From IMG/VR virus record IMGVR_UViG_3300042868_003731, positions 153,967 through 217,966 of that record: a stretch of 64,000 nt of DNA; one strand, written 5' to 3'. Under the pieces are notes generated by a model. The model made no database searches and was not told the DNA's origin. It saw nothing but the letters and a program-made list of their open reading frames with translations. This DNA is from a virus (taxonomy: Duplodnaviria > Heunggongvirae > Uroviricota > Caudoviricetes). Made by a program: the position numbers and the translations under genes. Below, piece by piece: positions 25,577 to 63,288 of the stretch (position 1 is the stretch's first letter; each line of letters opens with the position of its first letter).

Positions 25577-25584
25577 TATAAATA
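25577..25584 (+). promoter_or_regulatory. T4-type late promoter box TATAAATA upstream of gp23
   Basis: Exact TATAAATA, 36 nt before the ATG. AAAGGAGAG RBS. Confidence 0.55.
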
Positions 25585-25620: not shown

Positions 25621-26931
25621 ATGAGTCAATCTAATAAAACTTTAGTCGAAAAGTGGGGTCCTCTTCTTGAGCACTCTTCCTTCTCGCCAATCACAGACAA
25701 CCACAGAAAAGCAGTAACTGCTACTCTTCTAGAGAACACAGAGAAAGCACTTCTTGAGACCAGCGACGCGTCAATCAACATGACTTCGCTTCTTCAGGAA
25801 ACACCAACCAACTTCGCTGGAACCGGCGGTTTTGGTGCTGGTGCTAGCACACCACAAGCTGGTTACGATCCAATCCTTATCAGCCTAGTTCGTCGTGCTA
25901 TGCCAAACCTAATGGCATACGACATCGCTGGTGTTCAGCCAATGACTGGCCCAACTGGTCTTATCTTCGCAATGCGTTCTAACTACAACGCAATGTCAGG
26001 TAACACCGCAGTTGAAGCATTCTACAACGAAGCTGACACTGACTTCTCCGGTACTGGCTCTATGACTGGCGTTACTGGTTCTGCTGCAACAGCACCAACC
26101 GGTACTGGTCTAACAACCGCTGCTGCTGAAGCGCTTGGCGACGGAAACGGAACAAACTTCGCAGAGATGGCTCTTGCTATCGAAAAAGTTACTGTGTCTG
26201 CAAAGAGCCGCGCTCTTAAAGCAGAATATACCAGTGAACTTGCACAGGATCTCCGCGCTGTTCACGGTCTTGACGCTGAAACAGAACTTGCAAACATTCT
26301 ACAGTCTGAAATCCTTGCAGAAATCAACCGTGAAGTTGTTCGTACTGTTTACACCTCAGCCGTAACCGGTGGTGCAAACACTGCTGTAACTGGTATCTTC
26401 GATCTTGACGTTGACTCAAACGGCCGTTGGTCAGTTGAGAAGTTCAAGGGTCTTATGTTCCAGATCGAACTCGAAGCCAACGCGATTGCAAAAGCAACTC
26501 GTAGAGGCAAGGGTAACATCGTTATCTGTTCTTCTGACGTAGCTTCTGCTCTTCAGATGGCAGGTGTTCTCGATTACACCCCAGCTCTTAACAGCAACGC
26601 TCTAAACGTTGACGACACCGGAAACACCTTCGCTGGTGTTCTAAACGGTCGTTACAGAGTTTACATCGACCCATACGCTGGTGCAAACTACCTCGTAGTT
26701 GGCTATAAGGGATCCTCCGCATTCGACGCAGGTCTCTTCTACTGCCCATACGTTCCACTACAGATGTACCGCGCAGTTGGTGAAAACAGCTTCCAGCCAA
26801 AGATCGGCTTCAAAACCCGTTACGGTATGGTTGCTAACCCATTCGCTTTCGGCCCAACCCGTAGCGAAGGTGCTCTTACCGCTAACAGCAACGTCTACTA
26901 CCGTAGAGTTCGCGTTTCGAACCTATTCTAA
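25621..26931 (+). CDS. 23: Major capsid protein gp23
   Basis: 'KWGPLLE', 'VRRAMPNLMAYDIAGVQPMTGPTGLIFAMR', 'SAKSRALKAEYTSELAQDLRAVHGLDAE', 'FAGVLNGRYRVYIDPYA..YLVVGYKG' and 'FQPKIGFKTRYGMVANPFA' closely parallel T4 gp23. Confidence 0.92.
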   Translation: MSQSNKTLVEKWGPLLEHSSFSPITDNHRKAVTATLLENTEKALLETSDASINMTSLLQETPTNFAGTGGFGAGASTPQAGYDPILISLVRRAMPNLMAYDIAGVQPMTGPTGLIFAMRSNYNAMSGNTAVEAFYNEADTDFSGTGSMTGVTGSAATAPTGTGLTTAAAEALGDGNGTNFAEMALAIEKVTVSAKSRALKAEYTSELAQDLRAVHGLDAETELANILQSEILAEINREVVRTVYTSAVTGGANTAVTGIFDLDVDSNGRWSVEKFKGLMFQIELEANAIAKATRRGKGNIVICSSDVASALQMAGVLDYTPALNSNALNVDDTGNTFAGVLNGRYRVYIDPYAGANYLVVGYKGSSAFDAGLFYCPYVPLQMYRAVGENSFQPKIGFKTRYGMVANPFAFGPTRSEGALTANSNVYYRRVRVSNLF

Positions 26932-26941
26932 TAATAAAAGA

Positions 26942-26959
26942 GGCCGGAAACAACCGGCC
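26942..26959 (-). terminator. Rho-independent terminator for the - strand (ends the convergent methyltransferase transcript)
   Basis: GGCCGG-AAACAA-CCGGCC hairpin. On the - strand it is followed by UCUUUUAUUAUU. Confidence 0.5.
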
Positions 26960-26973
26960 CCTTCTAATAACTC

Positions 26974-27000
26974 GGCGGGTCTTCGGATCCGCCTTTTATT
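26974..27000 (+). terminator. Rho-independent terminator after gp23 (UUCG tetraloop hairpin + T-tract)
   Basis: GGCGGGTC-TTCG-GATCCGCC (8-bp stem including one G-U) followed by TTTTATTT. Confidence 0.6.
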
Positions 27001-27631
27001 TAATAGACGTCCGCTTAAAGATGATAGCGCCGTCAATCCATCGTTGTTCTTCGAACCCAATCTCTTTAAGAGCATCAGGAACGAGAGAAACATCTCCCCA
27101 GTTAATATCGTCCGCAATACAGTAACCACCAAGTTTTACTTGGCGCGCATACTTATTTACATCACGAATTGCTTGGATTGTATGCTGACCATCAATATAA
27201 AGAAAATCAATATCGAAGATAACAGGCGCATCGTCGCTTGGCTTTCGAATGATCTCTACGTACTTTCCACAGTCGTTTTCTTCCAAGACTGTAGTAAAGA
27301 CATTATAGATCCAAGGCATGTTGACGTTGGTCCAAAACTTGTAGTTGTCGCCGTCATAGCCCTTGGTTGCCTCTACGTTATCCCATGGATCAATCGCATA
27401 GAACTTGCCAGAGTTCATTCTCTTAAGTTCTAGAACTGCAGGAATGACACTCTTTCCACCATAGACGCCAATCTCTACGCATACCGGATCTTTCACGTGA
27501 GTAAAGATATCATCAATACAGTCAATAATACACCCAGCTTTGTTTAGAGAACACCAGCCCCACTCGCCAAAACGATTATCGAAGTCAGGATATATCTTTT
27601 CAATAAGGCGTTTACTTTCTTCCTTACTCAT
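26996..27631 (-). CDS. Class I SAM-dependent methyltransferase (CmcI-like O-methyltransferase fold)
   Basis: 'VCVEIGVYGGKSV' motif I, an acidic 'FYAIDPWD' motif II and a 'FLYIDGQH' motif. Confidence 0.55.
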   Translation of the reverse strand: MSKEESKRLIEKIYPDFDNRFGEWGWCSLNKAGCIIDCIDDIFTHVKDPVCVEIGVYGGKSVIPAVLELKRMNSGKFYAIDPWDNVEATKGYDGDNYKFWTNVNMPWIYNVFTTVLEENDCGKYVEIIRKPSDDAPVIFDIDFLYIDGQHTIQAIRDVNKYARQVKLGGYCIADDINWGDVSLVPDALKEIGFEEQRWIDGAIIFKRTSIK

Positions 27632-27876
27632 TAGATCATACCCAATGCAGCTTTGTACATCTCAAGAACTGCTTCTTCTTCGGCGATTGCATCTGCTTTA
27701 CGTTTACGAATGGCGATGATCTTCTTCATGACTTTCGTGTCGTATCCACGACCCTTAGCTTCTGCCATCAATTCCTTTTGAGAATTTGTGACGTCTTTCT
27801 TTTCTGACTCAAGCTGTTCGTAGCGTTCGATGAACTGACGAAGTTCATCGGCGGTTACGTTATATGCATCGTTCAT
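27631..27876 (-). CDS. gapR: GapR-like (DUF2312) nucleoid-associated DNA-binding protein
   Basis: 'LRQFIERYEQLESEKKDV..KELMAEAKGRGYDTKVMKKIIAIRKRKADAIAEEEAVLEMYKAALGMI' aligns along its whole length with Caulobacter GapR '[66 protein letters not shown]'. Confidence 0.8.
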   Translation of the reverse strand: MNDAYNVTADELRQFIERYEQLESEKKDVTNSQKELMAEAKGRGYDTKVMKKIIAIRKRKADAIAEEEAVLEMYKAALGMI

Positions 27877-28058
27877 ATCTCTTCTCCTTTTGTTAATTCA
27901 TTCAATCGAATGGTTGCAGTAACTGCGGCATCCAATTCTTCTCTTGTTTGGGACAGTGATACACAATCCCAAAGTTGTTCAAAGGAAACTCCACTGAAAA
28001 ACGCATTTCCAATCGAGCTTCCAATATAGTCATAGTCTGAGATCTTAAAGTCAGACAT
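27873..28058 (-). CDS. Hypothetical small protein
   Basis: ORF in the ATGA-coupled - strand series; no motif. Confidence 0.3.
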   Translation of the reverse strand: MSDFKISDYDYIGSSIGNAFFSGVSFEQLWDCVSLSQTREELDAAVTATIRLNELTKGEEI

Positions 28059-28470
28059 TCTTTACCTGTAGAACTCCCTCTTTTACGATAAGTGTTGCAT
28101 ATCGAGATTCATCAACCAAGCTAACTCTTGTATAGGATCGACCGCCGTCAATGAAAACAGAACCATCGGATGAGGATCGATAGTCGTGTCGAAACCTACT
28201 ATATACAATCTCGCCGTCATCAGCGATCACGGCAGAGATCTCTTGATCTTCAACGAATCCGCCGTTAGTAATATAGAGTTGATTATCTAGACTGCTAAAG
28301 TATAGGCCAAAGTATCGTCCGCCAGCAACATGCGCATCCTCTGAGTAGAATATCTCGATAGTCTTATCGTCTCTTTCGGTTGCGCATACATATCTTGCTC
28401 GCTTCAGATCTTCGATCTTTGCGATCTGTTCTCGGTTAAATAGAACCGGTTCGTTAAGGATCTTATTCAT
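28051..28470 (-). CDS. Hypothetical protein
   Basis: ORF with a plausible RBS context; no motif. Confidence 0.35.
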   Translation of the reverse strand: MNKILNEPVLFNREQIAKIEDLKRARYVCATERDDKTIEIFYSEDAHVAGGRYFGLYFSSLDNQLYITNGGFVEDQEISAVIADDGEIVYSRFRHDYRSSSDGSVFIDGGRSYTRVSLVDESRYATLIVKEGVLQVKNV

Positions 28471-28500
28471 AGTACTCTTTCTAAAGTAAAGAGAGGCTGC

Positions 28501-29457
28501 TCACGCAGCCTCTGCCATTTCTACTGCCAGGTTTAGAGCGTCAACCTTGCGCTTTGCGTTGGCACCGAACCAAGCCGACGAAAGACGAGTGTCGTTCGAA
28601 CGGCCGAGTTCATGGTCAGTCAGGTAGGTAACTGCGTTGAACATCTGCCAGAACGAACCCTTCTTGAACTCTGCGCCGGGCTGAGTCTCGACGACTTCGA
28701 GGGCACGTTCAGCGGTCGGCGACAGAAGCTTACCTTCCTTCGTCGACTCACCGAAGATCTTACCGAAGTACTTTTCCAGATCTTTCTGACCGTACTGCTT
28801 CGAACCAAGCAGTTCAGCAGCCGATTTGAAGGTTTCGACCTTACGGTGCGAGATGCCGAGCAGTTCTTTCACGCGCTCAGCGTCGAAGACCGAACGGTGG
28901 TTGACACGAACAGCAGCCTGACCGCTCTCAGCCAGAGCAACAGTCAGAGTGTTGTTGCAGACAACGCGCTCAAGTACGAAACGAACGTCGATCGACTTAC
29001 CGTACTGGTGCGGGTTGGAGAAGAGCAAGTAACCCTTCACTTCATCGCCACCGAACAGAGTGAAACCGTCACGAACATCTGCAAGAGCCCAGACGATACG
29101 ACCGTCGCGGAGCGAACCAGCGGTGTCCATCACCATGTCGCCTTTGGAAACAAAGTCGGTGAAGAAGTTAAAGGCTTCTTCGTTCTGAACCGGATTCCAA
29201 CCAGGACCGACCTGAGTCAGGATCTTACCGTCAGTTTCGCGAATGAGCGACTGCTGACCGGTCGGAATGCGCTTGCCGTTGAATTCGACGAAGGAGTCAA
29301 CCTTCTGAACATTCCAATCAAGGCCAGCGGCCTTCATCATTTCGGCAGGAGTCATATCGTCGCCAACCGGAGTACCAAGGCCATGCCAAGGTTTGCCTTT
29401 CGACGAGCGGTAAGCCATCTGGGCAACGCCGTCGATCATTTCAATCATGTGAGCCAT
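28501..29457 (-). CDS. DUF932-family phage/plasmid protein (TIGR03299-like); locally GC-elevated
   Basis: Overall resemblance to the DUF932 family ('KPWHGLG', 'WNVQKV', 'DGRIVWALA'). GC is about 55-58% against 43-45% in the flanks, which creates a 297-aa spurious antisense ORF. Confidence 0.5.
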   Translation of the reverse strand: MAHMIEMIDGVAQMAYRSSKGKPWHGLGTPVGDDMTPAEMMKAAGLDWNVQKVDSFVEFNGKRIPTGQQSLIRETDGKILTQVGPGWNPVQNEEAFNFFTDFVSKGDMVMDTAGSLRDGRIVWALADVRDGFTLFGGDEVKGYLLFSNPHQYGKSIDVRFVLERVVCNNTLTVALAESGQAAVRVNHRSVFDAERVKELLGISHRKVETFKSAAELLGSKQYGQKDLEKYFGKIFGESTKEGKLLSPTAERALEVVETQPGAEFKKGSFWQMFNAVTYLTDHELGRSNDTRLSSAWFGANAKRKVDALNLAVEMAEAA

Positions 29458-29479: not shown

Positions 29480-29523
29480 TTCCTTACATTATTAGAATAC
29501 ACTGATTCTAAACGAATGTCAAC
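29480..29523 (-). promoter_or_regulatory. Conserved early promoter-leader cassette copy 1 (PeSL-like), serving the DUF932 gene
   Basis: - strand reads GTTGACA-17 nt-TATTCT-AATAATGTAAGGAAC then the leader and ATG. Nearly identical to copies at 31400, 45080 and 47490. Confidence 0.6.
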
Positions 29524-31399: not shown

Positions 31400-31443
31400 T
31401 CCTTACATTATTAGAATACACTGATTCTAAACGAATGTCAACT
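31400..31443 (-). promoter_or_regulatory. Conserved early promoter-leader cassette copy 2 (PeSL-like)
   Basis: 44/44 identity to copy 1. Confidence 0.6.
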
Positions 31444-31679: not shown

Positions 31680-31711
31680 GGTGTATCCTTTCGTTTGATA
31701 TAGAACAGTCT

Positions 31712-31737
31712 ATACTGATTCTGAACGAATGTCAACC
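31712..31737 (-). promoter_or_regulatory. Degenerate cassette variant (TTGACA-17-TAGACT)
   Basis: Shares the core GTTGACATTCGTTCAGAATCAGTATA with the other copies; the leader differs. Confidence 0.4.
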
Positions 31738-32403: not shown

Positions 32404-32709
32404 TCACCCTCCGCATGATACTTTACCTGACCCAGTTGCCACAGACCCAGCGTCGGCCGAGTCTCCTACACGCGCAACCGGTATTCCTGCTATCGTTACT
32501 TTTGAAGAACCCGCATTGATAACAGAAGAATGCGGGACACAAACTGGTCCCGCATTAATAGTATGAGGTGCAATTGCATCACCTTGCACAGCGACTCTCT
32601 TTCCACCTATCGTAACCTTTGTCTGAAGAGAACCTTGTATGAGAGCGGTGCCGTCACAACCGTGACCGGTGGTGATCGTATCAACAGTACAGACGGCAAC
32701 CGCTGGCAT
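32404..32709 (-). CDS. PAAR-repeat spike-tip protein (T4 gp5.4-like)
   Basis: 101 aa, Gly/Val-rich, with repeated 'GxxVxxGxxxV' beta-strand units and His/Cys ligands (HGCDG...CVPHS). Confidence 0.65.
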   Translation of the reverse strand: MPAVAVCTVDTITTGHGCDGTALIQGSLQTKVTIGGKRVAVQGDAIAPHTINAGPVCVPHSSVINAGSSKVTIAGIPVARVGDSADAGSVATGSGKVSCGG

Positions 32710-32724
32710 ACGTAATTCTCCTCT

Positions 32725-33474
32725 TTACGCGTAGTCTAAAACTTTTTCTTCTGCGAGGATAAACGACTTCACGAGACCAGATCTTACGATGTCATCGACT
32801 GTGAATTCTATCGTTTTAAACTCTCTTATCTCTTTCAACACATTGATAAAGCTCGATAGTCCAGAGCGATCCAATCGGTTCTTAGAATTTCGAAGGTCGT
32901 CCTGCTTCGTATCACCACAGAAAATAATCTTAGAAGACTCGCCAACACGAGTCATAATTGATCTTATTTCTTCGTATGTCATGTTCTGGCATTCGTCAAC
33001 TACGATGACTGAGTTATCGAAAGTAAGACCACGAACAAACGAAGAGCTCATGAATTCGATGCATCCTTGCTGTTTCATAATGCTATAGCCATCAGATCTT
33101 CCAAACAAATCGTTTACTATATCTATATATGGCGTCTCATAGTATGCTATTTTTTCCTTAAGACTACCTGGCATAAATCCTTGATCGCGAGTCTGAACCG
33201 CAGATCGAATGACTATGACCTTTTCGTAGTTCTTTGTCTCCATCACGTCGTTCAACGCGAGATAGAGAGCACACATTGTTTTACCTGTTCCTGCTGTTCC
33301 GATGGCCGCTATGTTGTATCCTTGTTTATAATCGTCGAATAGCATCTCTTGAGTTGAAGTAATTGGTTGTATCTTTTTCATTGTGAACTTCTGATTAACT
33401 ACGTTCACTATATTATCTAGATTTCTTTCATGTCTTCTTTTTTCTTTTCGAGATAGACGACGTGATACTACCAT
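32725..33474 (-). CDS. phoH: PhoH-like phosphate-starvation-inducible ATPase
   Basis: Walker A 'GTAGTGKT', 'VIVVDECQNMT' (DExx box) and 'IIFCGDTKQDD' are typical of PhoH. Confidence 0.85.
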   Translation of the reverse strand: MVVSRRLSRKEKRRHERNLDNIVNVVNQKFTMKKIQPITSTQEMLFDDYKQGYNIAAIGTAGTGKTMCALYLALNDVMETKNYEKVIVIRSAVQTRDQGFMPGSLKEKIAYYETPYIDIVNDLFGRSDGYSIMKQQGCIEFMSSSFVRGLTFDNSVIVVDECQNMTYEEIRSIMTRVGESSKIIFCGDTKQDDLRNSKNRLDRSGLSSFINVLKEIREFKTIEFTVDDIVRSGLVKSFILAEEKVLDYA

Positions 33475-35026: not shown

Positions 35027-35887
35027 TCAAAAGTCCTGTATATCAGTGATTAAATTTTTAAGTTTGTTCTTCATAAAGTAATCAAATAGTTGAGATCTCC
35101 CAACTTCTTTATCCACGCTGTAGTCTTCAAGGATTTTCTTTTTATAAGCATCTGGAATCTCAGTCAGATCAATCATCATCTTATTACGATGATAGTTTCT
35201 AACTGTATTTTCATCCATGTGATCAGGGCCTTTCAAAAAATTGGCCAGGCGATTCGCAGTCATCATTTTTTGGCGTTCACCAATCGCAAGACAGTTGTCT
35301 GGAGATAGAATGTTCGGTACACCGTCACCGCTGTCGCCTTTAATGATATGTTCCATGAGGTATTTATCGGGATCTGAATTCTGAACCCATTTCTTGCGAA
35401 CCGGATCGTACTGCTTTACGTTTGCATACTTATGCAATTGGATGTAGTCTTTATCACCCGAAAGGATAAGGAACTGCTCAGCGCCGATGTTTAGTTCTGT
35501 TCCATGCTCATGGACGACAGCACCGATGATGTCGTCTGCTTCACAGTGGTCGATATGAATGACCTTATAAGGGAAGTGATCTTTAAGCTCAGAACGAATG
35601 GTATTGATCATTCGAAACAGTTCGTTCCAATCGAGCTCAGACTCTTCACGAGACTTTCTGCGGTTTGCTTTGTAGTAAGGAAAGGTTTCTCGCCGCCAAG
35701 AGTTCTTACCGTCGGCGCAGATAACGATCTCACCGAACTCTTTATGAAACTTTTTTCGGTTTGAACGGATTGAGTTTAGAAACATATGACGAAGAAGATT
35801 TTCATCCAAGTCAATGTTGTGGTGATTGCCGATACCGACAAATAGTGATGCTAGGATCACTTGGTTGAAGTCAATGAGTATTGCCAT
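35027..35887 (-). CDS. rnh: RNase H / FEN-like 5'-3' exonuclease
   Basis: 'LIDFNQVILASL', 'MFLNSIRSNRKKF', 'REESELDWNE', 'VIHIDHCEADDIIGAVV' and 'LHKYANVKQYDPVRKKWV' parallel T4 RNase H ('LIDFSQIALSTA', 'LILNSIKFNVKKA', 'REESTWDWEG', 'IVMDIDKYEADDHIAVLV', 'LHKYPNVKQWSPMHKKWV'). Confidence 0.85.
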   Translation of the reverse strand: MAILIDFNQVILASLFVGIGNHHNIDLDENLLRHMFLNSIRSNRKKFHKEFGEIVICADGKNSWRRETFPYYKANRRKSREESELDWNELFRMINTIRSELKDHFPYKVIHIDHCEADDIIGAVVHEHGTELNIGAEQFLILSGDKDYIQLHKYANVKQYDPVRKKWVQNSDPDKYLMEHIIKGDSGDGVPNILSPDNCLAIGERQKMMTANRLANFLKGPDHMDENTVRNYHRNKMMIDLTEIPDAYKKKILEDYSVDKEVGRSQLFDYFMKNKLKNLITDIQDF

Positions 35888-35955: not shown

Positions 35956-36271
35956 TCATTTCTTTGTCGATTTCTTCATTTTCTATAAATTCATCTGCAA
36001 AGTCTTGCAGAGGATGATATATGTCGCTTGCCATTAAATGAAGCGAGCGAATTGATTCGAGAAGAAGAATGATGGACGGGTAGTACCTTTCGGTGTCTTG
36101 TTCGAACCTGCACCCAGACCTTACCATCTCGATAAGAACAAGGTTCCAAAGACTTTCTGCGACGTCGTTCGAAAAACTCGTTCTGTATTCCGTAAGTTTT
36201 TCGGATAACTCTTCGAGTGATTGTGGTGGTGAGTCGAGTTTCATTCGAGGGAATTTTATGATTTCAGCCAT
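35930..36271 (-). CDS. Hypothetical acidic protein
   Basis: ORF; no motif. Confidence 0.35.
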   Translation of the reverse strand: MAEIIKFPRMKLDSPPQSLEELSEKLTEYRTSFSNDVAESLWNLVLIEMVRSGCRFEQDTERYYPSIILLLESIRSLHLMASDIYHPLQDFADEFIENEEIDKEMIDIGELLE

Positions 36272-37217
36272 TACTTAAACGCCTCAACAAGTTAATCCAA
36301 GAGTTCTTAAAGGTATTTATGCTATTCCGTGGAAGGTTACATGCGTCCGAATTCGTTATCTTATTAATGAAGTTTTCGTCGATACGCTGGGCATCAAGTA
36401 TGTTCTTTACTGCAGAAAAAGAACGGTTCGCATGCTCGTTTCTATCCTCAGTATATTCATACATTAGAGTAGCGTTAGAAGACGTTTCTGGCAGAGCTGC
36501 ATAATTAGGATGGATCACCAATACACCAGAACGTATCGCTTCTATCATCGCGATACAAGACGTTTCCTGCCATATTGAAGGGAAAAGGAAGATATGAGAT
36601 TCCTTCAGAGCTTCGAGAACTTCTTCGTTACTCTTTGATCCATGATATGTAATTCGTGGATGAGCTTTGAGTTTTTCGAACAAGTTTTCATATGGCTTAT
36701 CACGTTGTTCCCAACCATAAATCTTAAAGGATGAGTATACATCCAGATGAATGTTGTCGTATTGTTTGCTGAGAGCATCAAAGATCGGATAGACGAGTTC
36801 CAATCCACGATGCGGAGTCGTGTGATAGATGAAACGAATTTGATCGGTTCTCTTTTGATGCGGGTGATACTCCAACTCAATCGCATTGTGTATTACGCTA
36901 CACTTCGAGTATGGAATCTGATAGATGAGCATGTATTGATCACGCTGCCAATACGAAACGAAAACAAAGTGATCGAACTTTTGCCAACCGCCGTCACGAA
37001 GAACAGCATTCTCTGGATCAAAAACTAAATCATGGCAGTAGAAAATGTTTTTCACATCTTTGTGCATCTCACGAGGCCTCGAGAAGTGAACTGCAAAATT
37101 CTGTAGAAGTTCCGGCGGAACATTATTAAGCAGCCTCTCTCGCATCATCTCAGTGCCTCCACGAGCATTGCGAGAGAGGTTTGTATCTACAATGTTTCCC
37201 TTGTAAATACAGCTCAT
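36264..37217 (-). CDS. GT-B fold glycosyltransferase (GT1/GT4-like)
   Basis: 'FPSIWQETSCIAMIEAIRSGVLVI' fits the E-x7-E donor-binding motif. Confidence 0.5.
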   Translation of the reverse strand: MSCIYKGNIVDTNLSRNARGGTEMMRERLLNNVPPELLQNFAVHFSRPREMHKDVKNIFYCHDLVFDPENAVLRDGGWQKFDHFVFVSYWQRDQYMLIYQIPYSKCSVIHNAIELEYHPHQKRTDQIRFIYHTTPHRGLELVYPIFDALSKQYDNIHLDVYSSFKIYGWEQRDKPYENLFEKLKAHPRITYHGSKSNEEVLEALKESHIFLFPSIWQETSCIAMIEAIRSGVLVIHPNYAALPETSSNATLMYEYTEDRNEHANRSFSAVKNILDAQRIDENFINKITNSDACNLPRNSINTFKNSWINLLRRLSNG

Positions 37218-39416: not shown

Positions 39417-40352
39417 CTACTTATGATATGAAGTGTACCAATCAACGAATGAAGCAACACCTTCTTCGATATTGACTGAAGGTTGATAACCATACTTTAC
39501 AAGTTTTGATACGTCAGACTGAGTCTCAAGACAATCGCCTGCTTGGTGTTCGATATACTCAATATCAGCTTTCTTTCCAGTCGCCGTTTCGATTGCTTCT
39601 ACGAAACGTTTAAGAGTGACTTGCTGAGTGTTACCTATGTTAAAGATCTCGTTCGAAGGAATACTGTCGTTTTCCATCACTATCTGAACACCTTTCACGA
39701 TATCATCAATGTACGTGAAATCGCGCTTCATGTTTCCATAGTTATACAGCTTTATCTTTTCACGATTGAGAATGTTCTTTGTGAAGTCATAGAGAGCCAT
39801 GTCGGGTCTACCCCAAGGTCCATATACTGTGAAGAAACGAAGACCGATGTCGTTCAGGCCAGACATCTTAAACTGGCATTCATTAACAAACTTAGTGTAT
39901 CCATACGGACTTATCTGATGAAGAACCGGTTCGTCTTCTCTCCATGGAAGTTGTTCGATTCCAGCGCAGACGCTAGAAGTAGATGCATAGACGACTTTTT
40001 CTATGCCGTTTTCTTTGCACGCATCAATAACGTTTTGAGTTCCGTCTATGTTTACCTTATGGTAGATACCAGGGTTCTTCATAGAATATCTTACACCCGC
40101 CATCGCTGCTAGGTGTACAACAATGTCTGGCTTCGCACTCTTAATAAAGCGAGATAGAGCTTCTTTATGAATGATATCTACTAGGTGTACTGGAGGCAAG
40201 CGAAAATGCTTAACTCTATCCACCTTAAGTGTAGCTGGATAGTAATCACAATAGTTGTCAATACCAATTATCTCGTAACCGCAATCGCGAAGACGAGCGG
40301 ATAGTGAAGCTCCAATAAATCCTGCTGCACCAGTTACAAGAACTCTTTTCAT
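39417..40352 (-). CDS. NAD-dependent nucleotide-sugar epimerase/dehydratase (SDR family)
   Basis: 'VLVTGAAGFIGASL' Rossmann motif and the 'YGYTK' catalytic YxxxK. Confidence 0.85.
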   Translation of the reverse strand: MKRVLVTGAAGFIGASLSARLRDCGYEIIGIDNYCDYYPATLKVDRVKHFRLPPVHLVDIIHKEALSRFIKSAKPDIVVHLAAMAGVRYSMKNPGIYHKVNIDGTQNVIDACKENGIEKVVYASTSSVCAGIEQLPWREDEPVLHQISPYGYTKFVNECQFKMSGLNDIGLRFFTVYGPWGRPDMALYDFTKNILNREKIKLYNYGNMKRDFTYIDDIVKGVQIVMENDSIPSNEIFNIGNTQQVTLKRFVEAIETATGKKADIEYIEHQAGDCLETQSDVSKLVKYGYQPSVNIEEGVASFVDWYTSYHK

Positions 40353-41176
40353 TTAAAAAATAAACCTTCTTCGAAGTCTTTATAAATTAGTTTTTTAGAT
40401 GCGCCTTCATAATGAATAAAGCTTGGAGACACCTCAATCATTTCCGATCCACTTCTAAAGAATGGCTTTTCGCTAAATTTTCTGCGATAGTTATACTTTC
40501 TTCCGATATGGAATGGAAGTAGAGTATATAAGTTCACAATGTAGTGAAAGAAATTTTCATCTGAAGCTGTTTTGTTCTTTAGATAAATTACGTTTTCAGA
40601 ATGCTTTTCTTCCCAATGCTCCCACCATTTGCCCTTTGAAAATTTCTCAAGTATATGAGTTTCAGATGGAGTTCCTCTGCATGGATAGTTACCAGAAAAT
40701 ATATCCATGTTATATAGTTTTCCATGTCCGTTCTTTAAATTTCTATTTGTGTTATTAAACAGTATGACACCAGAATTTATCTTTCCGAGCGAGCTGCTAT
40801 CCCTATGAATATATCTATCAGCGACATTATCAAAGTAACCGACGAGTCCGCTATGCATAAATTCTTCAAAGATGTTATCGGCATTTTGGTGTATGATCAC
40901 GTCGGTGTCTACGTATAGAACCTGATCGTAATCCTTTAGATGTTGAACTGCTCTATACTTATCAAAGGTCTCAACGCCAAATGCCCAAGGTTTATATTCC
41001 TCTTCACTTAGGAACTCAAACTTATAGTCGATACCATATCTCTCACAGTATGCTTTTGCAAAAGTTGTGCTATGTTTCCAGTATTCTCCAACCGAAACTC
41101 GATCAAAGCTTTCGCCGAAAACATTCTTACTTCTATCTTTAAAGTCGACGTGAAACTGGTACAGTAATCTCTTCAA
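40349..41176 (-). CDS. Putative GT-A glycosyltransferase (GT8-like, DxD)
   Basis: 'VLYVDTDVII' DxD-containing segment in a roughly 275-aa protein. Family assignment is tentative. Confidence 0.4.
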   Translation of the reverse strand: MKRLLYQFHVDFKDRSKNVFGESFDRVSVGEYWKHSTTFAKAYCERYGIDYKFEFLSEEEYKPWAFGVETFDKYRAVQHLKDYDQVLYVDTDVIIHQNADNIFEEFMHSGLVGYFDNVADRYIHRDSSSLGKINSGVILFNNTNRNLKNGHGKLYNMDIFSGNYPCRGTPSETHILEKFSKGKWWEHWEEKHSENVIYLKNKTASDENFFHYIVNLYTLLPFHIGRKYNYRRKFSEKPFFRSGSEMIEVSPSFIHYEGASKKLIYKDFEEGLFFK

Positions 41177-41790: not shown

Positions 41791-41820
41791 AGAGTATACT
41801 GATTCTATCAGAATGTCAAC
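41791..41820 (-). promoter_or_regulatory. Degenerate cassette variant (TTGACA-17-TACTCT)
   Basis: The core GTTGACATTCTGATAGAATCAGTATACTCT shares GAATCAGTATA with the other copies. Confidence 0.4.
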
Positions 41821-45079: not shown

Positions 45080-45123
45080 GTTCCTTACATTATTAGAATA
45101 CACTGATTCTAAACGAATGTAAA
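45080..45123 (-). promoter_or_regulatory. Conserved early promoter-leader cassette copy 3 (-35 TTTACA variant)
   Basis: Identical to copies 1 and 2 except that the -35 reads TTTACA and the upstream flank shares AATAGGAAAGTGCACT with copy 4. Confidence 0.6.
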
Positions 45124-47489: not shown

Positions 47490-47535
47490 GTTCCTTACAT
47501 TATTAGAATATACTGATTCTAAATGAATGTAAATA
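47490..47535 (-). promoter_or_regulatory. Conserved early promoter-leader cassette copy 4
   Basis: Near-identical to copy 3 (TTTACA -35; one A/G change in the spacer). Confidence 0.6.
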
Positions 47536-48784: not shown

Positions 48785-49741
48785 TTACTGGGCTGGCTTA
48801 GCAACAACGTCCATGAATGGAACAGTCGAGTCTGGGATCATAGTGGTAGGAAGAGCACCGTTCCACTTTTCAGCTTGAACTAGAGCAATCAAACCTGCGT
48901 TATCCTTCAGAGCTTCTGCTTTCGCCTTAATCGCGCTTGCTTCTGCTTCACCTTGAATACGAGTTGCTTCTGCGGCCGCAACTGCTTGAGCTAGTTGAGC
49001 GTCGGCTTGTGCCTGTGCCTGAGTCACGACGATCTCAGCCTGAACCTTTTCACGTTCTGCGTTCTGCCGAACCTTTTGCACTTCGACTTCTGCAAGCATA
49101 CGAGCTTCAATCGATTGTTCATAAGCATCAGAGAAGTCGATGTTCTCAATTTGAACCGACTCAACGATGATAGGACCAATTACAGCTTTCTGGATTGCCA
49201 TCTGAACTTCTGCAGCAAGACGTTCACGTTCCTGAATAGCGGTTGCTGCGTTGAACTTACCAAAGACGTTCTTGACTTCTTCAAGAACCTGACGATCAAG
49301 CAAGCGAGAGATCACGCCAGCTTCGCCACCATATTCACGATAGATCGTCTCAACTTGATCTGCAGGGAAGCGATAGTTAACAGACAGGTTTAGACCCGCA
49401 GTCTGTTGATCACGAGAGTAAGCAAGGATGTTCTCGTACAACTGAGCCTGTGATTGAACAGAAATATCAACCACCTTTTCGATCAAAGGGATTTTAAATC
49501 CAAGACCTGGTTCTGCAGTACCAACCACGGCACCGTTACGAAGAGTTACACCACGGTAACCTTCATCAACAGTATACCACGATCCGCCAATTACAGTCAG
49601 TGCAGTAAGACCGACGACAGTAGCGATAGTTCCACCAACGATAGCATTCATTTTCATTTTCCTTTTACGTTCATTATATTGATTTAGTGCTGCTTCATAC
49701 TCAGCTTTAGTGTTAAAGTCATAGCGATCAGGTTTAAACAT
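48785..49741 (-). CDS. SPFH/band-7 (prohibitin/HflKC-like) membrane protein
   Basis: N-terminal TM helix, then 'YTVDEGYRGVTLRNGAV' and the long Ala/Glu/Gln-rich coiled-coil typical of band-7 proteins. GC-elevated. Confidence 0.75.
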   Translation of the reverse strand: MFKPDRYDFNTKAEYEAALNQYNERKRKMKMNAIVGGTIATVVGLTALTVIGGSWYTVDEGYRGVTLRNGAVVGTAEPGLGFKIPLIEKVVDISVQSQAQLYENILAYSRDQQTAGLNLSVNYRFPADQVETIYREYGGEAGVISRLLDRQVLEEVKNVFGKFNAATAIQERERLAAEVQMAIQKAVIGPIIVESVQIENIDFSDAYEQSIEARMLAEVEVQKVRQNAEREKVQAEIVVTQAQAQADAQLAQAVAAAEATRIQGEAEASAIKAKAEALKDNAGLIALVQAEKWNGALPTTMIPDSTVPFMDVVAKPAQ

Positions 49742-50818: not shown

Positions 50819-51577
50819 TTAAACTTTTTTTCGAACAGACTCATTATATTTTACGGCAGCTTCTAGCGTCTGTAGCTCGACGCCTGAGTTCTTTGCCGTC
50901 TGCAGAATCGCCGCGGTATCCTTTGGAAAACACGCTCCGCCCCAGCCTCTATCGTTCTCATTTACAAAAGTATGGCTCTCACCGATACGAGAGTCTAACG
51001 TGACACCAGAGCGAACCGACTCGTAATCCAATCCGAGCGTTTCACAGAAATCGTAGATCTCGTTGAAGAAGCTACACTTTGCCGCAAGAAACGAGTTTCG
51101 AAAATACTTGATGGCAATTGCGTGCTTTGGCTTACATACAGTTATGCTGATGTCTGGATACACCGTCGTGTAAAAATCTAACCAGTATTGAACGTTACCG
51201 CCAGCCAAGAACGCATGAGTGAGGTTCTTAAGGTCGTCGTCTGCGCTTGCAGCTCGAAGAAATTCTGGACTAAATGTGATGGAGTGTTCAGGAAAGTTTC
51301 TTTCGAGAGTTTCCCATCCCTCCATCGATATCGTGCTCTTAATGAGAATTGGAGCTTCTTTTGGAATGTCTTGAATTACATTATAGATTATGCTCATATC
51401 ACAGCTTCCATCTTCAGATGATGGAGTCGAAACACAGACGATAGCACCACTAATGTTTTCTATGTCTTTGATACGAATATTGCTGAAGGCCGGATCTACG
51501 ATAGACATTTCGTGATGAGGGCTAAACGCTTTATAGTGAGCTTTACCAACGAAGCCGTATCCTAATAGTACAATCAT
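50819..51577 (-). CDS. Short UDP-glucose/GDP-mannose dehydrogenase-family protein
   Basis: N-terminal 'VLLGYGFVGKA' Rossmann motif and 'GWGGACFPKDTAAI' catalytic-Cys motif (GG.C.PKD). At 252 aa it is shorter than canonical UDPGDH. Confidence 0.6.
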   Translation of the reverse strand: MIVLLGYGFVGKAHYKAFSPHHEMSIVDPAFSNIRIKDIENISGAIVCVSTPSSEDGSCDMSIIYNVIQDIPKEAPILIKSTISMEGWETLERNFPEHSITFSPEFLRAASADDDLKNLTHAFLAGGNVQYWLDFYTTVYPDISITVCKPKHAIAIKYFRNSFLAAKCSFFNEIYDFCETLGLDYESVRSGVTLDSRIGESHTFVNENDRGWGGACFPKDTAAILQTAKNSGVELQTLEAAVKYNESVRKKV

Positions 51578-51587
51578 GGTTTATCCT

Positions 51588-52595
51588 CTAGTTAGTTTTA
51601 CAGTTTATAAGATTGTCTCGAAAAATGTTCCAAGCGTTTCCCCAATCCCATTTCATGCTGAATTTGTATACTGATTCTCTATCGAGGTCAAGAGATTTTT
51701 TAATAGCGATAGTGATATCCTCATCCATATAACCAGTTACATCTTGATCTATTACGTCTAATGGTCCTTGCACAGGATAAGCAGCGACCGGAGTACCGCA
51801 TGCCATTGCCTCAATCATCACCAATCCAAATGTATCCCAACGACTAGGAAACACAAAAACATCAGCCTGTTGATAATAATGCGCGAGTTCAGCACCACGT
51901 TTGGCACCTACAAAGTTCACGTAAGGATATTGCTTCTTGTATGTTTCTAACATAGGACCATCGCCTACGATAGTTTTAACTGCATTGGGGTAGTTTATCT
52001 CAAGAAAAGCTTCCAGATTTTTTTCTTTGCTTACTCGACTCACGCAAACGAGGTTAATGTGCGAGCATGGTTCTTTCACTGCCGGTTTGAATATATCCCT
52101 ATCAACTCCTCGAGTCCAATGAATAACATTGTTATTAAATCCATGCGCATGAAGTTCATCGACCATTGATTTTGTCGTAGTGAGTACCTTATTGCTATTC
52201 TTATGGAACCAGCGCACAACTGCCCAAGTAATTCCTTCAGGAATTCCTAGTAACGTCCTTACACCTTCAGGAAACTTAGTATGGTAAGCAGTATTGTACT
52301 TAATCCCACGTATTGCAAGATACCTTCTAGCAGACATACCCATAGGACCTTCTGTGGCGATGTGTATATAATCCGGATCAATCTTCTTGATCTCTTTCCC
52401 AACAACCCAAGGAGGTGCCCAGGCAAGCTTAACTTCATTGTACTTTGGGCAATCAATATGGCCGTACATCCCGGGATGAATATAATCAACAGTATAACCG
52501 TCGCGAATCGCATACGTCTCAATATTTTTGTAGGTCGTAACCACACCATTAATCTGATTCGGTAAGTTGTCTGTAACTATTAAGATCTTCGGCAT
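51588..52595 (-). CDS. GT4-family (GT-B) glycosyltransferase
   Basis: 'FPSRWDTFGLVMIEAMACGTPVAA' fits the E-x7-E motif. Confidence 0.7.
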   Translation of the reverse strand: MPKILIVTDNLPNQINGVVTTYKNIETYAIRDGYTVDYIHPGMYGHIDCPKYNEVKLAWAPPWVVGKEIKKIDPDYIHIATEGPMGMSARRYLAIRGIKYNTAYHTKFPEGVRTLLGIPEGITWAVVRWFHKNSNKVLTTTKSMVDELHAHGFNNNVIHWTRGVDRDIFKPAVKEPCSHINLVCVSRVSKEKNLEAFLEINYPNAVKTIVGDGPMLETYKKQYPYVNFVGAKRGAELAHYYQQADVFVFPSRWDTFGLVMIEAMACGTPVAAYPVQGPLDVIDQDVTGYMDEDITIAIKKSLDLDRESVYKFSMKWDWGNAWNIFRDNLINCKTN

Positions 52596-53321: not shown

Positions 53322-54287
53322 TTATTTAAGAGCAGAAACTTCAGCCTGAGTAGCTGCAAGTTCTGGATCTGGAACCAATCCATACTGTGCAAGAGCGCCA
53401 TCAGGACCTGCCATCTCATCACTCACGAAGAACTCGATGTATTCCTTCAGACCAGGAATGACGCTGAGGTGAGCGTTCTTCACGTAGAAGTAAAGTGGAC
53501 GGCTGATTGGATAGTCACCGCTTGAGATGGTTTCTACGCTTGGTGCCACGCCACTTACCGTGGCAACTTCTAGTTTATCAGTGTTGTTCTGATAGAAGCT
53601 AAGACCAAACACACCTAGCGATGTTTTATTAGCATCAAGACGAGCAAGTGTTTCTGTGTAGTCGCCATCGATGTCAACTGCTGCACCGTCAGTTCTTACT
53701 TTCACACAAGCTTTCTTTTGATCGTCATCGAGTTTCTCAACACCGAGAGCTGCTTTACAACCTTCTTCCATCACCTTTACATCGAACACTTCACGAGTGC
53801 CGTGTTTGGTACCTGGAATGTATGCAAGGATTGCTACTTCTGGAAGAGTCGAGTCGACTTCACTCCAGAGTTTTGCAGTGCTCGACTCGTGTAGAGCGCT
53901 ATAGAGTTGTTCGACTGTTAGATTATCGATATTAAGTTGATCGATGTTCGATGCAAACACGATACCGTCATAACCAATACGAACCTCAGTCACTTCACCA
54001 ATTGCTTCTTCACACTTGGCTCTTTCTTCATCCTTCATCTTTGAAGAACTATTTGCGATGTCAACAGTGTTTTCACCAACACCTTCGCAGAGCTTCTTAC
54101 GGCCTGCACCCGAACCACCACCTTCAACTACTGGCGACGGAAAATCAAAATTTTCACCAAATGCCTCTGCGACAATGGTTGCATATGGTAGTACTGTAGA
54201 CGATCCTGTTACTTGAACGTTATCTCTTGCAAACGCAGTCGTGGACGCCAAAGCAATAATTGCCGCCGCTGATAGTAAAGCTTTCAT
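53322..54287 (-). CDS. pstS: Periplasmic phosphate-binding protein PstS (PBP_like_2) with signal peptide
   Basis: Signal peptide 'MKALLSAAAIIALASTTAFA', then 'VQVTGSSTVLPYATIVAEAF' and 'GGGSGAGRKKL', the hallmarks of phosphate-binding SBPs. Confidence 0.75.
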   Translation of the reverse strand: MKALLSAAAIIALASTTAFARDNVQVTGSSTVLPYATIVAEAFGENFDFPSPVVEGGGSGAGRKKLCEGVGENTVDIANSSSKMKDEERAKCEEAIGEVTEVRIGYDGIVFASNIDQLNIDNLTVEQLYSALHESSTAKLWSEVDSTLPEVAILAYIPGTKHGTREVFDVKVMEEGCKAALGVEKLDDDQKKACVKVRTDGAAVDIDGDYTETLARLDANKTSLGVFGLSFYQNNTDKLEVATVSGVAPSVETISSGDYPISRPLYFYVKNAHLSVIPGLKEYIEFFVSDEMAGPDGALAQYGLVPDPELAATQAEVSALK

Positions 54288-63223: not shown

Positions 63224-63257
63224 GGTGGCCTCCTTGCCATTCCTTATATTATCAATC

Positions 63258-63288
63258 TACACTGATTCTAAACGAATGTAAATAGAAA
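63258..63288 (-). promoter_or_regulatory. Conserved early promoter cassette copy (TTTACA -35 variant; -10 region diverged)
   Basis: Shares ACACTGATTCTAAACGAATGTAAATAG with copies 3 and 4. Confidence 0.45.

Follow-up and report, generated by a model that had tools for sequence, protein, structure and literature searches.

What a nucleoid-associated protein might do for a T4-like phage is the question raised by a short gene, gapR, in a 64,000-nucleotide (nt) stretch of viral DNA (positions 153,967 to 217,966 of the IMG/VR record IMGVR_UViG_3300042868_003731; the whole stretch is called the window below). The gene occupies 27631..27876 on the minus strand, runs from ATG to TAA as read from the window sequence and encodes an 81-amino acid (aa) protein of the PF10073/UPF0335/DUF2312 DNA-binding family. 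The answer that we regard as rather probable is that the product is a functional GapR clamp, captured long ago by a probably freshwater T4-like lineage, and that it most likely tops up the supply of GapR for phage DNA.

The identity of the protein is the first step in this argument. The original prediction was of a phage-encoded GapR/DUF2312 homologue aligning over its whole length with Caulobacter GapR, to be checked by a hidden Markov model search with PF10073, and the Pfam, PDB and BLASTP matches agree with it. In the Pfam search, PF10073 (GapR_DNA-bd) matched the 81-aa protein over profile positions 1-72 of 72 with 105.3 bits (E = 1.3e-30), the curated gathering cutoff being 22.6 bits, and PHROG 4212 was matched with E = 1.7e-34. 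The solved GapR structures from Bosea (6cfy/6cfx, E = 6e-21) and Caulobacter (6jyk/6ozx, ~3e-16) were also matched, with BLASTP aligning residues 2-81 on residues 9-89 of Caulobacter GapR at 46% identity (E = 1e-21). In Caulobacter GapR, K34, K42, K49, K56, K59 and K66 are the channel lysines that touch the DNA phosphates, with an E28-R65 ion pair keeping helix 2 against helix 1 (PMC7373187; PMC7498317; PMC6853979). All six lysines are kept in the window protein, as K26, K34, K41, K48, K51 and K58, while the ion pair has its equivalent in E20-R57, which is present in 13 of 13 distinct phage and 73 of 73 distinct bacterial copies; lysine contacts and ion pair together are conserved in 12-13 of the 13 distinct phage copies. 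On its sequence the window protein is a true member of the GapR family.

The gene lies in a genome with T4-type virion genes. Positions 1 to 26931 of the plus strand form a structural module that closes with the gp20 portal, gp21 protease, gp22 scaffold and gp23 capsid genes, and the Pfam families Portal_T4, Peptidase_S77, T4_CASP and Gp23 were found on a 205-kb contig encoding an identical GapR protein. The best matches to g23, at ~66% aa identity, are those of the Sinorhizobium phages phiM12 and phiN3, followed by Stenotrophomonas phage DLP_6, Methylophilales phage Melnitz and cyanomyoviruses; no close nucleotide relative of the window was found among deposited phages, and no tRNA genes were detected in the window. 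A protein identical to the window GapR is present on 51 public contigs, the longest being 217,966 bp, and the gene order of the window is repeated on one 205-kb ENA contig, k141_409682 of ERZ27272069.

How long the gene has been in this lineage can be judged from its composition. gapR has a GC content of 0.43 and a third-codon-position GC (GC3) of 0.45, ranking 17 of 61 genes in a phage with a mean GC3 of 0.416 +/- 0.066, whereas GC3 in the bacterial copies is 0.68-0.93. Between the window gene and those bacterial copies nucleotide identity is 70-76%, with the proportion of synonymous differences (pS) at ~0.9 and so saturated, and non-synonymous divergence (dN) at 0.07-0.11. Between phage copies the ratio of dN to synonymous divergence (dS) is 0.010-0.045 wherever dS is measurable. 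The GC3 of all phage copies is phage-like (0.29-0.51) and speaks against repeated recapture of the gene from hosts of high GC. To judge from these figures, the capture of gapR, probably from a Paracoccaceae host, is old, not recent, and has been followed by strong purifying selection.

The conservation of the gene within the lineage points the same way. In approximately 24 related T4-like IMG/VR contigs, with a GC content of 0.37-0.45, gapR is convergent to the capsid gene g23, which anchors the conserved synteny. Across diverged relatives GapR is 78-96% identical compared with 70-80% for g23 (96 and 75% in L084, 89 and 70% in L098, 78 and 71% in L116), with the neighbouring methyltransferase and the scaffold proteins at just 54-65% in the most diverged relatives. 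Within a phage clade, then, a nucleoid-associated protein can belong to the best-conserved proteins, here surpassing the capsid, and such conservation argues that phage GapR has a real role in infection. It could be held instead that gapR is a neutral passenger, a recently acquired host gene without a phage role, since its high identity with the host proteins might at first sight mean recent transfer and since it sits in a variable region downstream of g23, with some relatives lacking it. The fully ameliorated composition, the saturated synonymous sites, the dN/dS of 0.01-0.045 and the conservation of GapR above g23 all oppose this, as do the strong Shine-Dalgarno sequence and the overlaps of its start and stop codons with neighbouring genes. 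Recent transfer was rejected on composition and dN/dS, and the passenger explanation is given almost no credence.

Whether the lineage acquired the gene once is less clear-cut. The g23 tree places every gapR-bearing phage within a single clade, which takes in 24 of the 93 unique sequences, although these phages are not strictly monophyletic. The gene is clade-restricted: of 34 relatives chosen by their capsid gene and having 2.5 kb or more of sequence downstream, none (0/34) contained gapR. In a neighbour-joining tree of GapR built on 75 columns the T4-like copies did not group together (1/200 bootstraps); the protein is too short and too conserved for such a tree to separate single from multiple capture. 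For the T4-like copies a mostly single origin is favoured by the derived residues that they share and by nearest-neighbour identities, with L116 doubtful.

The same protein gives the best indication of the host. The closest cellular homologues are 84-85 aa long and 85-90% identical. Their genes lie on contigs of megabase scale that belong to Paracoccaceae/Rhodobacteraceae of the Tabrizicola-Rhodobacter-Gemmobacter-Fuscovulum group, many of them metagenome-assembled genomes (MAGs) from lakes or ponds. Of the best 80 genome loci, 78 carry alphaproteobacterial names, in nearly every case Paracoccaceae/Rhodobacterales, the remaining two being a 'Variovorax' MAG, probably mis-binned, and a generic 'Pseudomonadota' MAG. 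The best match from an isolated phage (Ruegeria phage 45A6) reaches only 75%. The T4-like Caulobacter phage phiCr30 serves as calibration: its GapR is 69% identical to that of its known host Caulobacter and ~44% identical to the window protein. Since a phage GapR thus resembles that of its own host, a freshwater Paracoccaceae is the best host prediction, resting on the single gene gapR. The alphaproteobacterial host originally predicted is in this way supported, and narrowed by the 85-90% identity homologues of that one gene. The GC content of the phage (0.42) differs from that of the predicted host (0.61-0.73), a combination for which phiCr30 again provides a precedent, with a locus of 0.36 GC in a host of ~68% GC. 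A second host signal was sought by searching the DUF932 and PstS-like proteins of the window against a set of 5.8 billion proteins, in which the top matches all lay on phage-sized contigs and so added nothing on the host. A caveat to the host inference comes from the isolated cyanophages that have GapR, namely Synechococcus phage S-ESS1 and four Microcystis phages. As such the analysis offers a testable host prediction (Tabrizicola, Rhodobacter, Gemmobacter) for an abundant uncultured T4-like lineage.

What the protein would do in such a cell is approached through cellular GapR, which favours AT-rich, positively supercoiled DNA and promotes the progression of the replisome and RNA polymerase (PMC13408042). 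In Caulobacter there are only ~500 GapR tetramers per cell, enough for ~5 kb of DNA (PMC13408042). Many copies of a genome of ~205-218 kb and 42% GC in a cell of 61-73% GC would be a large high-affinity sink for host GapR, and the small host pool set beside this large, AT-rich, many-copy genome makes it most likely that the phage copy tops up GapR. We infer when gapR is expressed, that its product forms tetramers and acts on DNA and with topoisomerases, and why a supply would be needed. gapR would most likely be transcribed from a host-sigma-70-dependent early/middle gene block, and the protein would most likely assemble as a dimer-of-dimers ring like cellular GapR. This ring would encircle AT-rich, overtwisted DNA ahead of replication forks and RNA polymerases, aiding type II topoisomerases in removing positive supercoils, and the phage copy would supplement the small host pool for the AT-rich, fast-replicating DNA of the phage itself. 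In phiCr30 the gapR transcript was detected from 3 min post infection (phiCr30 study).

The residues by which phage and bacterial copies differ bear on where the protein acts. The tetramerisation helix, helix 3, agrees with the Paracoccaceae consensus at 16/16 positions and the N-terminal half of helix 1 at 23/25, with the differences clustering at positions 31-32, in helix 2 and in the linker between helices 2 and 3. Position 61 is Ala in 12/13 distinct phage copies and Pro in 54/73 bacterial ones; position 63 is Ala/Ser in 11/13 phage copies and Asp/Glu in 73/73 bacterial; position 56 is Ile in 7/13 and Leu in 73/73, respectively; and position 31 is non-acidic in 8/13 phage copies and Glu/Asp in all 73 bacterial ones. 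The core net charge averages -0.9 in the phage proteins (0 in the window protein) and -2.4 in the bacterial proteins, where it is never above -2 (Mann-Whitney p = 2e-6, for sequences that are not phylogenetically independent). The window protein is accordingly pictured as a slightly modified GapR whose affinity for DNA is predicted to equal or exceed that of the host protein, and which would be able to form mixed assemblies with the latter. The substitutions (A61, A/S63, positions 31-32 and the higher charge) constitute ready-made mutants for studying ring opening and DNA affinity in GapR. A 129-aa member of the same 90%-identity cluster (P0125), found on 6 Logan contigs, may reflect a gene call extended at the N-terminus or a fusion form of phage GapR.

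The match of helix 3 and most of helix 1 to the host consensus makes mixed tetramers plausible, and this has a bearing on an alternative in which phage GapR takes over or interferes with the host, co-assembling or competing with host GapR so as to alter the nucleoid or divert GapR or topoisomerase. In keeping with it are the derived phage changes that are near-absent in bacteria (A61 for Pro, the loss of acidic 63, the frequent loss of acidic 31 and the higher charge), and the finding that phiCr30 infection alters the accessibility of one host chromosomal region, a change that the study does not link to GapR. However, the rest of the host chromosome profile in the phiCr30 study stayed similar to the uninfected control, the retention of full length and of all DNA-contact residues does not describe a truncated dominant-negative form, and the AT-rich preference predicts binding to phage DNA of 42% GC over host DNA of 61-73% GC. 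Host interference is regarded as unlikely, and action on the phage's own AT-rich DNA would fit better than the manipulation of host chromosome topology raised in the original prediction.

The position of gapR in the genome bears on when it would be expressed. The gene and its surroundings are laid out as follows:

25621..26931, plus strand: g23 major capsid protein (PF07068, Gp23), convergent to the gapR unit, with TATAAATA at 25577-25584
26942..26993, both strands: terminator-like hairpins between the convergent g23 (late) and methyltransferase/gapR (early-type) units
26996..27631, minus strand: class I S-adenosylmethionine-dependent methyltransferase (Methyltransf_24; Pfam PF13578, E = 2.4e-12)
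27873..28058, minus strand: 61-aa open reading frame (ORF), function not assigned, its stop overlapping the gapR start
28051..28470, minus strand: DUF7695 protein, 139 aa (Pfam PF24749, 27 bits; PHROG 12504)
28492..28513, minus strand: terminator-like hairpin with a weak T tract, straddling the DUF932 stop
28501..29457, minus strand: DUF932 phage/plasmid-like protein (Pfam PF06067, 128 bits), upstream of the gapR sub-cluster in the same orientation
29494..29522, minus strand: nearest sigma-70-like promoter 5' of gapR, TTGACA-N17-TATTCT, ahead of DUF932

An AAGGAG Shine-Dalgarno sequence, read directly at 27884..27889 on the minus strand, lies 7 nt 5' of the gapR ATG. The gapR start shares ATGA with the stop of the 61-aa ORF and its stop overlaps the methyltransferase start by 1 nt (TAATG), which places gapR in a tightly packed, probably translationally coupled cluster, the ATGA overlap suggesting coupling to the 61-aa ORF. 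The first gene of this sub-cluster (DUF7695-orf61-gapR-methyltransferase) encodes the DUF7695 protein. The 61-aa ORF had no match in Pfam or PHROG searches, and a homologue with 59-100% identity occurs 5' of gapR in many related phage loci. The methyltransferase next to gapR is present in loci L082-84 and L088-95 and absent in L085, L086 and L096-98. The DUF932 gene has a GC content of 0.54 and a GC3 of 0.61, the highest among the 61 genes in a window of 0.42 GC.

Beyond this cluster, all genes from 26996 to ~62000 are on the minus strand, and this block encodes a T4-type RNase H (rnh), an RNA ligase, a DNA ligase and a Dda-like helicase. The late-promoter motif TATAAATA has 9 sites in the window where 3.1 would be expected. 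Eight lie among the structural genes on the plus strand, some of them directly before g22 and g23, and a search of the minus-strand block 26996-62000 found none. By contrast, TTGACA-N16-18-TANNNT sites number 11 against 2.8 expected, 10 of the 11 being on the minus strand. The anatomy of the block (T4 genes, sigma-70-like promoters, zero TATAAATA) thus gives indirect support for placing gapR in an early-type block. The original prediction had put the gene among the early genes of a T4-like phage; the phage is T4-like by g23, gp20, gp21, the T4 scaffold and its late promoters, and the early setting holds indirectly, through a block with rnh, ligases, the Dda-like helicase and sigma-70-like promoters and with no late promoter.

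The promoter at 29494-29522 is one copy of a repeated 29-bp element, TTGACATTCGTTTAGAATCAGTGTATTCT, and has the same position upstream of DUF932 in related phages. The element has at least 7 minus-strand copies, two of them exact, with 0 in shuffles. A repeat search placed them as follows:

29494-29522, minus strand: copy of TTGACATTCGTTTAGAATCAGTGTATTCT, the promoter ahead of DUF932
31413-31441, minus strand: copy of TTGACATTCGTTTAGAATCAGTGTATTCT
31707-31735, minus strand: copy of TTGACATTCGTTTAGAATCAGTGTATTCT
41791-41819, minus strand: copy of TTGACATTCGTTTAGAATCAGTGTATTCT
45095-45123, minus strand: copy of TTGACATTCGTTTAGAATCAGTGTATTCT
47505-47533, minus strand: copy of TTGACATTCGTTTAGAATCAGTGTATTCT
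63254-63282, minus strand: copy of TTGACATTCGTTTAGAATCAGTGTATTCT

Conservation extends to the spacer that separates the -35 and -10 hexamers; this spacer holds the inverted half-sites ATTC/GAAT/ATTC, a possible operator for a phage regulator.

Several observations pull against a functional GapR clamp that supplements the host pool. The hairpin at 28492-28513 separates gapR from the nearest good promoter and so makes the transcription unit uncertain; read-through of the hairpin or a further promoter may be required. The stretch examined is 64 kb of a genome of ~205 kb or more, the remainder of which may encode a type II topoisomerase of the phage's own or a T4 DsbA. The same g23 clade includes members without gapR downstream of g23, from which the gene would be dispensable for at least some relatives. 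The phage copies are systematically less acidic than the bacterial ones and so may be something other than a plain equivalent of host GapR. The AlphaFold2 monomer has a moderate pLDDT of 68.7, with helices at 9-42 and 48-77, and a Foldseek search with it against the PDB returned insignificant helical-hairpin matches only and no GapR structure. For an obligate oligomer the Foldseek outcome is unsurprising, and monomer model and search together are uninformative; the model joins helices 2 and 3, like the DNA-free dimer form (PMC6853979).

The minus-strand block also holds PhoH, PstS-like, glycosyltransferase and sugar-nucleotide genes. Two GT4 glycosyltransferases, an NAD-dependent epimerase/dehydratase and a UDP-glucose/GDP-mannose dehydrogenase-like protein are encoded at 36264-37217, 39417-41176 and 50819-52595 (minus strand), and these genes could modify phage DNA or the host surface. 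A PAAR-motif protein beside PhoH, a PstS-like phosphate-binding protein and an SPFH/Band-7 protein are encoded at 32404-32709, 32725-33474, 53322-54287 and 48785-49741 (minus strand). The PstS gene, which has 84-97% identical counterparts on many phage-sized contigs, seems to circulate among phages. A 330-kb contig with an 86%-identical PstS looks phage-like and carries a Ribosomal_L12 (L7/L12) domain gene immediately downstream. Such proteins beside the PstS homologue, on the NCBI contigs GCA_006365055.1 / GCA_006365115.1, are at:

L246, 9263-9658: Ribosomal_L12 (L7/L12) domain protein
L247, 5224-5595: Ribosomal_L12 (L7/L12) domain protein

Comparison with known systems begins with the cellular protein closest to the window GapR, that of the Paracoccaceae (e.g. 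WP_430464090.1; Tabrizicola, Rhodobacter, Gemmobacter, Fuscovulum), with 85-90% identity over residues 2-80. The DNA contacts and helix 3 are common to both, with the K59-equivalent being Lys in the phage and mostly Arg in the bacteria. The bacterial proteins are 84-85 aa long compared with 81 aa in the phage, which has the shorter N-terminus, and their genes have a GC3 of 0.68-0.93 compared with 0.45. They have mostly Pro61, always D/E63, Leu56 and E/D-Q at 31-32, where the phage proteins have A61, A/S63, I56 and a variable 31-32, and their core net charge is -2 to -4, against 0 in the window protein. The GapR of Caulobacter crescentus (CCNA_03428; 6jyk, 6ozx, 6k2j) shares the Pfam family, a collinear alignment, the channel lysines and the E28-R65 pair; its R63 DNA contact is Ala in the phage and in Paracoccaceae, and the disordered N-terminal tail is shorter in the phage.

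A more distant comparison is with DsbA of T4 (PF11126), a small helical dsDNA-binding protein of 89 aa in a separate Pfam family, encoded between rnh and gene 33 (order rnh-dsbA-33) and ascribed late-promoter enhancement. It has been called a GapR-family homologue (Iyer et al., 2021; PMC7824862), and it might be supposed that GapR here does the late-promoter enhancement job of DsbA rather than topology control. T4 DsbA scores below threshold on PF10073 (14.6 bits, E = 0.026), hhalign gives a weak collinear alignment of the two over 69 columns (E = 0.0011, probability 20%), some Rhodobacter-phage GapR-like genes are annotated 'DsbA-like', and no DsbA-like ORF was detected by tblastn within the 64-kb window of a genome of ~205 kb or larger. 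On the other hand, about two thirds of the genome lies outside the window and a true dsbA may exist there, pairwise BLASTP of T4 DsbA against the window protein gives E = 1.5, and the window protein matched PF10073 alone at E <= 0.01, with no match to PF11126, on which T4 DsbA itself scores 139.5 bits. Being 85-90% identical to cellular GapR, the window protein is clearly host-taken rather than T4-ancestral. The dsbA slot is likewise not occupied by gapR, rnh (35027-35887) having a DUF6433 gene as its downstream neighbour with gapR 7 kb away by g23, and no second GapR copy was found in the window by tblastn. A role as the counterpart of DsbA is considered improbable.

More doubtful still is a combination of these ideas, in which a charge-shifted variant would co-assemble with host GapR, retarget host supercoil relief to phage DNA and replace T4 DsbA. 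It rests on the loss of acidic residues close to the DNA channel and in the hinge that joins helices 2 and 3, with the oligomerisation helix intact. If true, GapR/DsbA-type rings would be a recurrent, repeatedly re-acquired part of T4-like replication-coupled transcription. Among the Rhodobacter phages (H56-H67; RcPutin, RcIroh, RcRios and others) the match is to residues 2-50 only, at 71-73%, in genes for a 'DsbA-like protein'; in the Rhodobacter capsulatus phages these genes may be a truncated or chimeric GapR helix-1 module.

Among phage genes, phiCr30 gapR (AGS81025.1) is a published counterpart of the window gene, likewise carried by a T4-like alphaproteobacterial phage in an early or replication gene region. 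There gapR adjoins the gp45 clamp and gp44/62 clamp loader genes, whereas in the window it is convergent to g23, and in Sinorhizobium phage phiM9, unlike the window, it adjoins a RecBCD inhibitor. With the phiCr30 and phiM9 copies 44-49% identical to the window protein and in other positions, the captures appear to be independent. The T4-like GapR carriers already deposited are phages of Caulobacter (phiCr30), Sinorhizobium (phiM9), Rhizobium and Agrobacterium. Phages with PHROG 4212/DUF2312 include Ruegeria DSS3-P1 and 45A6, phages of Rhodobacter, Rhizobium and Agrobacterium, Sinorhizobium phiM9, Erythrobacter R34L1 and Synechococcus S-ESS1. In all, 140 INPHARED phage records have GapR homologues, at least 114 of them from alphaproteobacterial hosts. 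The GapR of Ruegeria phage 45A6 (KT820175.1 3396-3635; H21) is annotated as 'cell division protein FtsK' and looks mis-annotated. Dozens of viral or prophage contigs in IMG/VR (L100-L161, GC 0.50-0.72) encode GapR of 68-83% identity with no T4-like genes, from which temperate or siphovirus-type Rhodobacteraceae elements often carry their own gapR.

A 2025 paper on an Erythrobacter phage listed GapR as an auxiliary gene and inferred capture from the host; its claim to a first report is contradicted by the 140 deposited homologue records. The novelty implied in the original prediction is for the same reason overstated, the gapR of the T4-like phiCr30 having moreover been published as expressed during infection, and phage-encoded GapR, including in T4-like phages, is already established in the literature and databases. 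The other DUF2312 phages are mostly siphoviruses or podoviruses with high-GC genomes, and none falls in the g23 clade described here. Relative to these, the new elements are the uncultured clade, a host prediction made more precise, and a GapR of shifted charge that is very strongly conserved.

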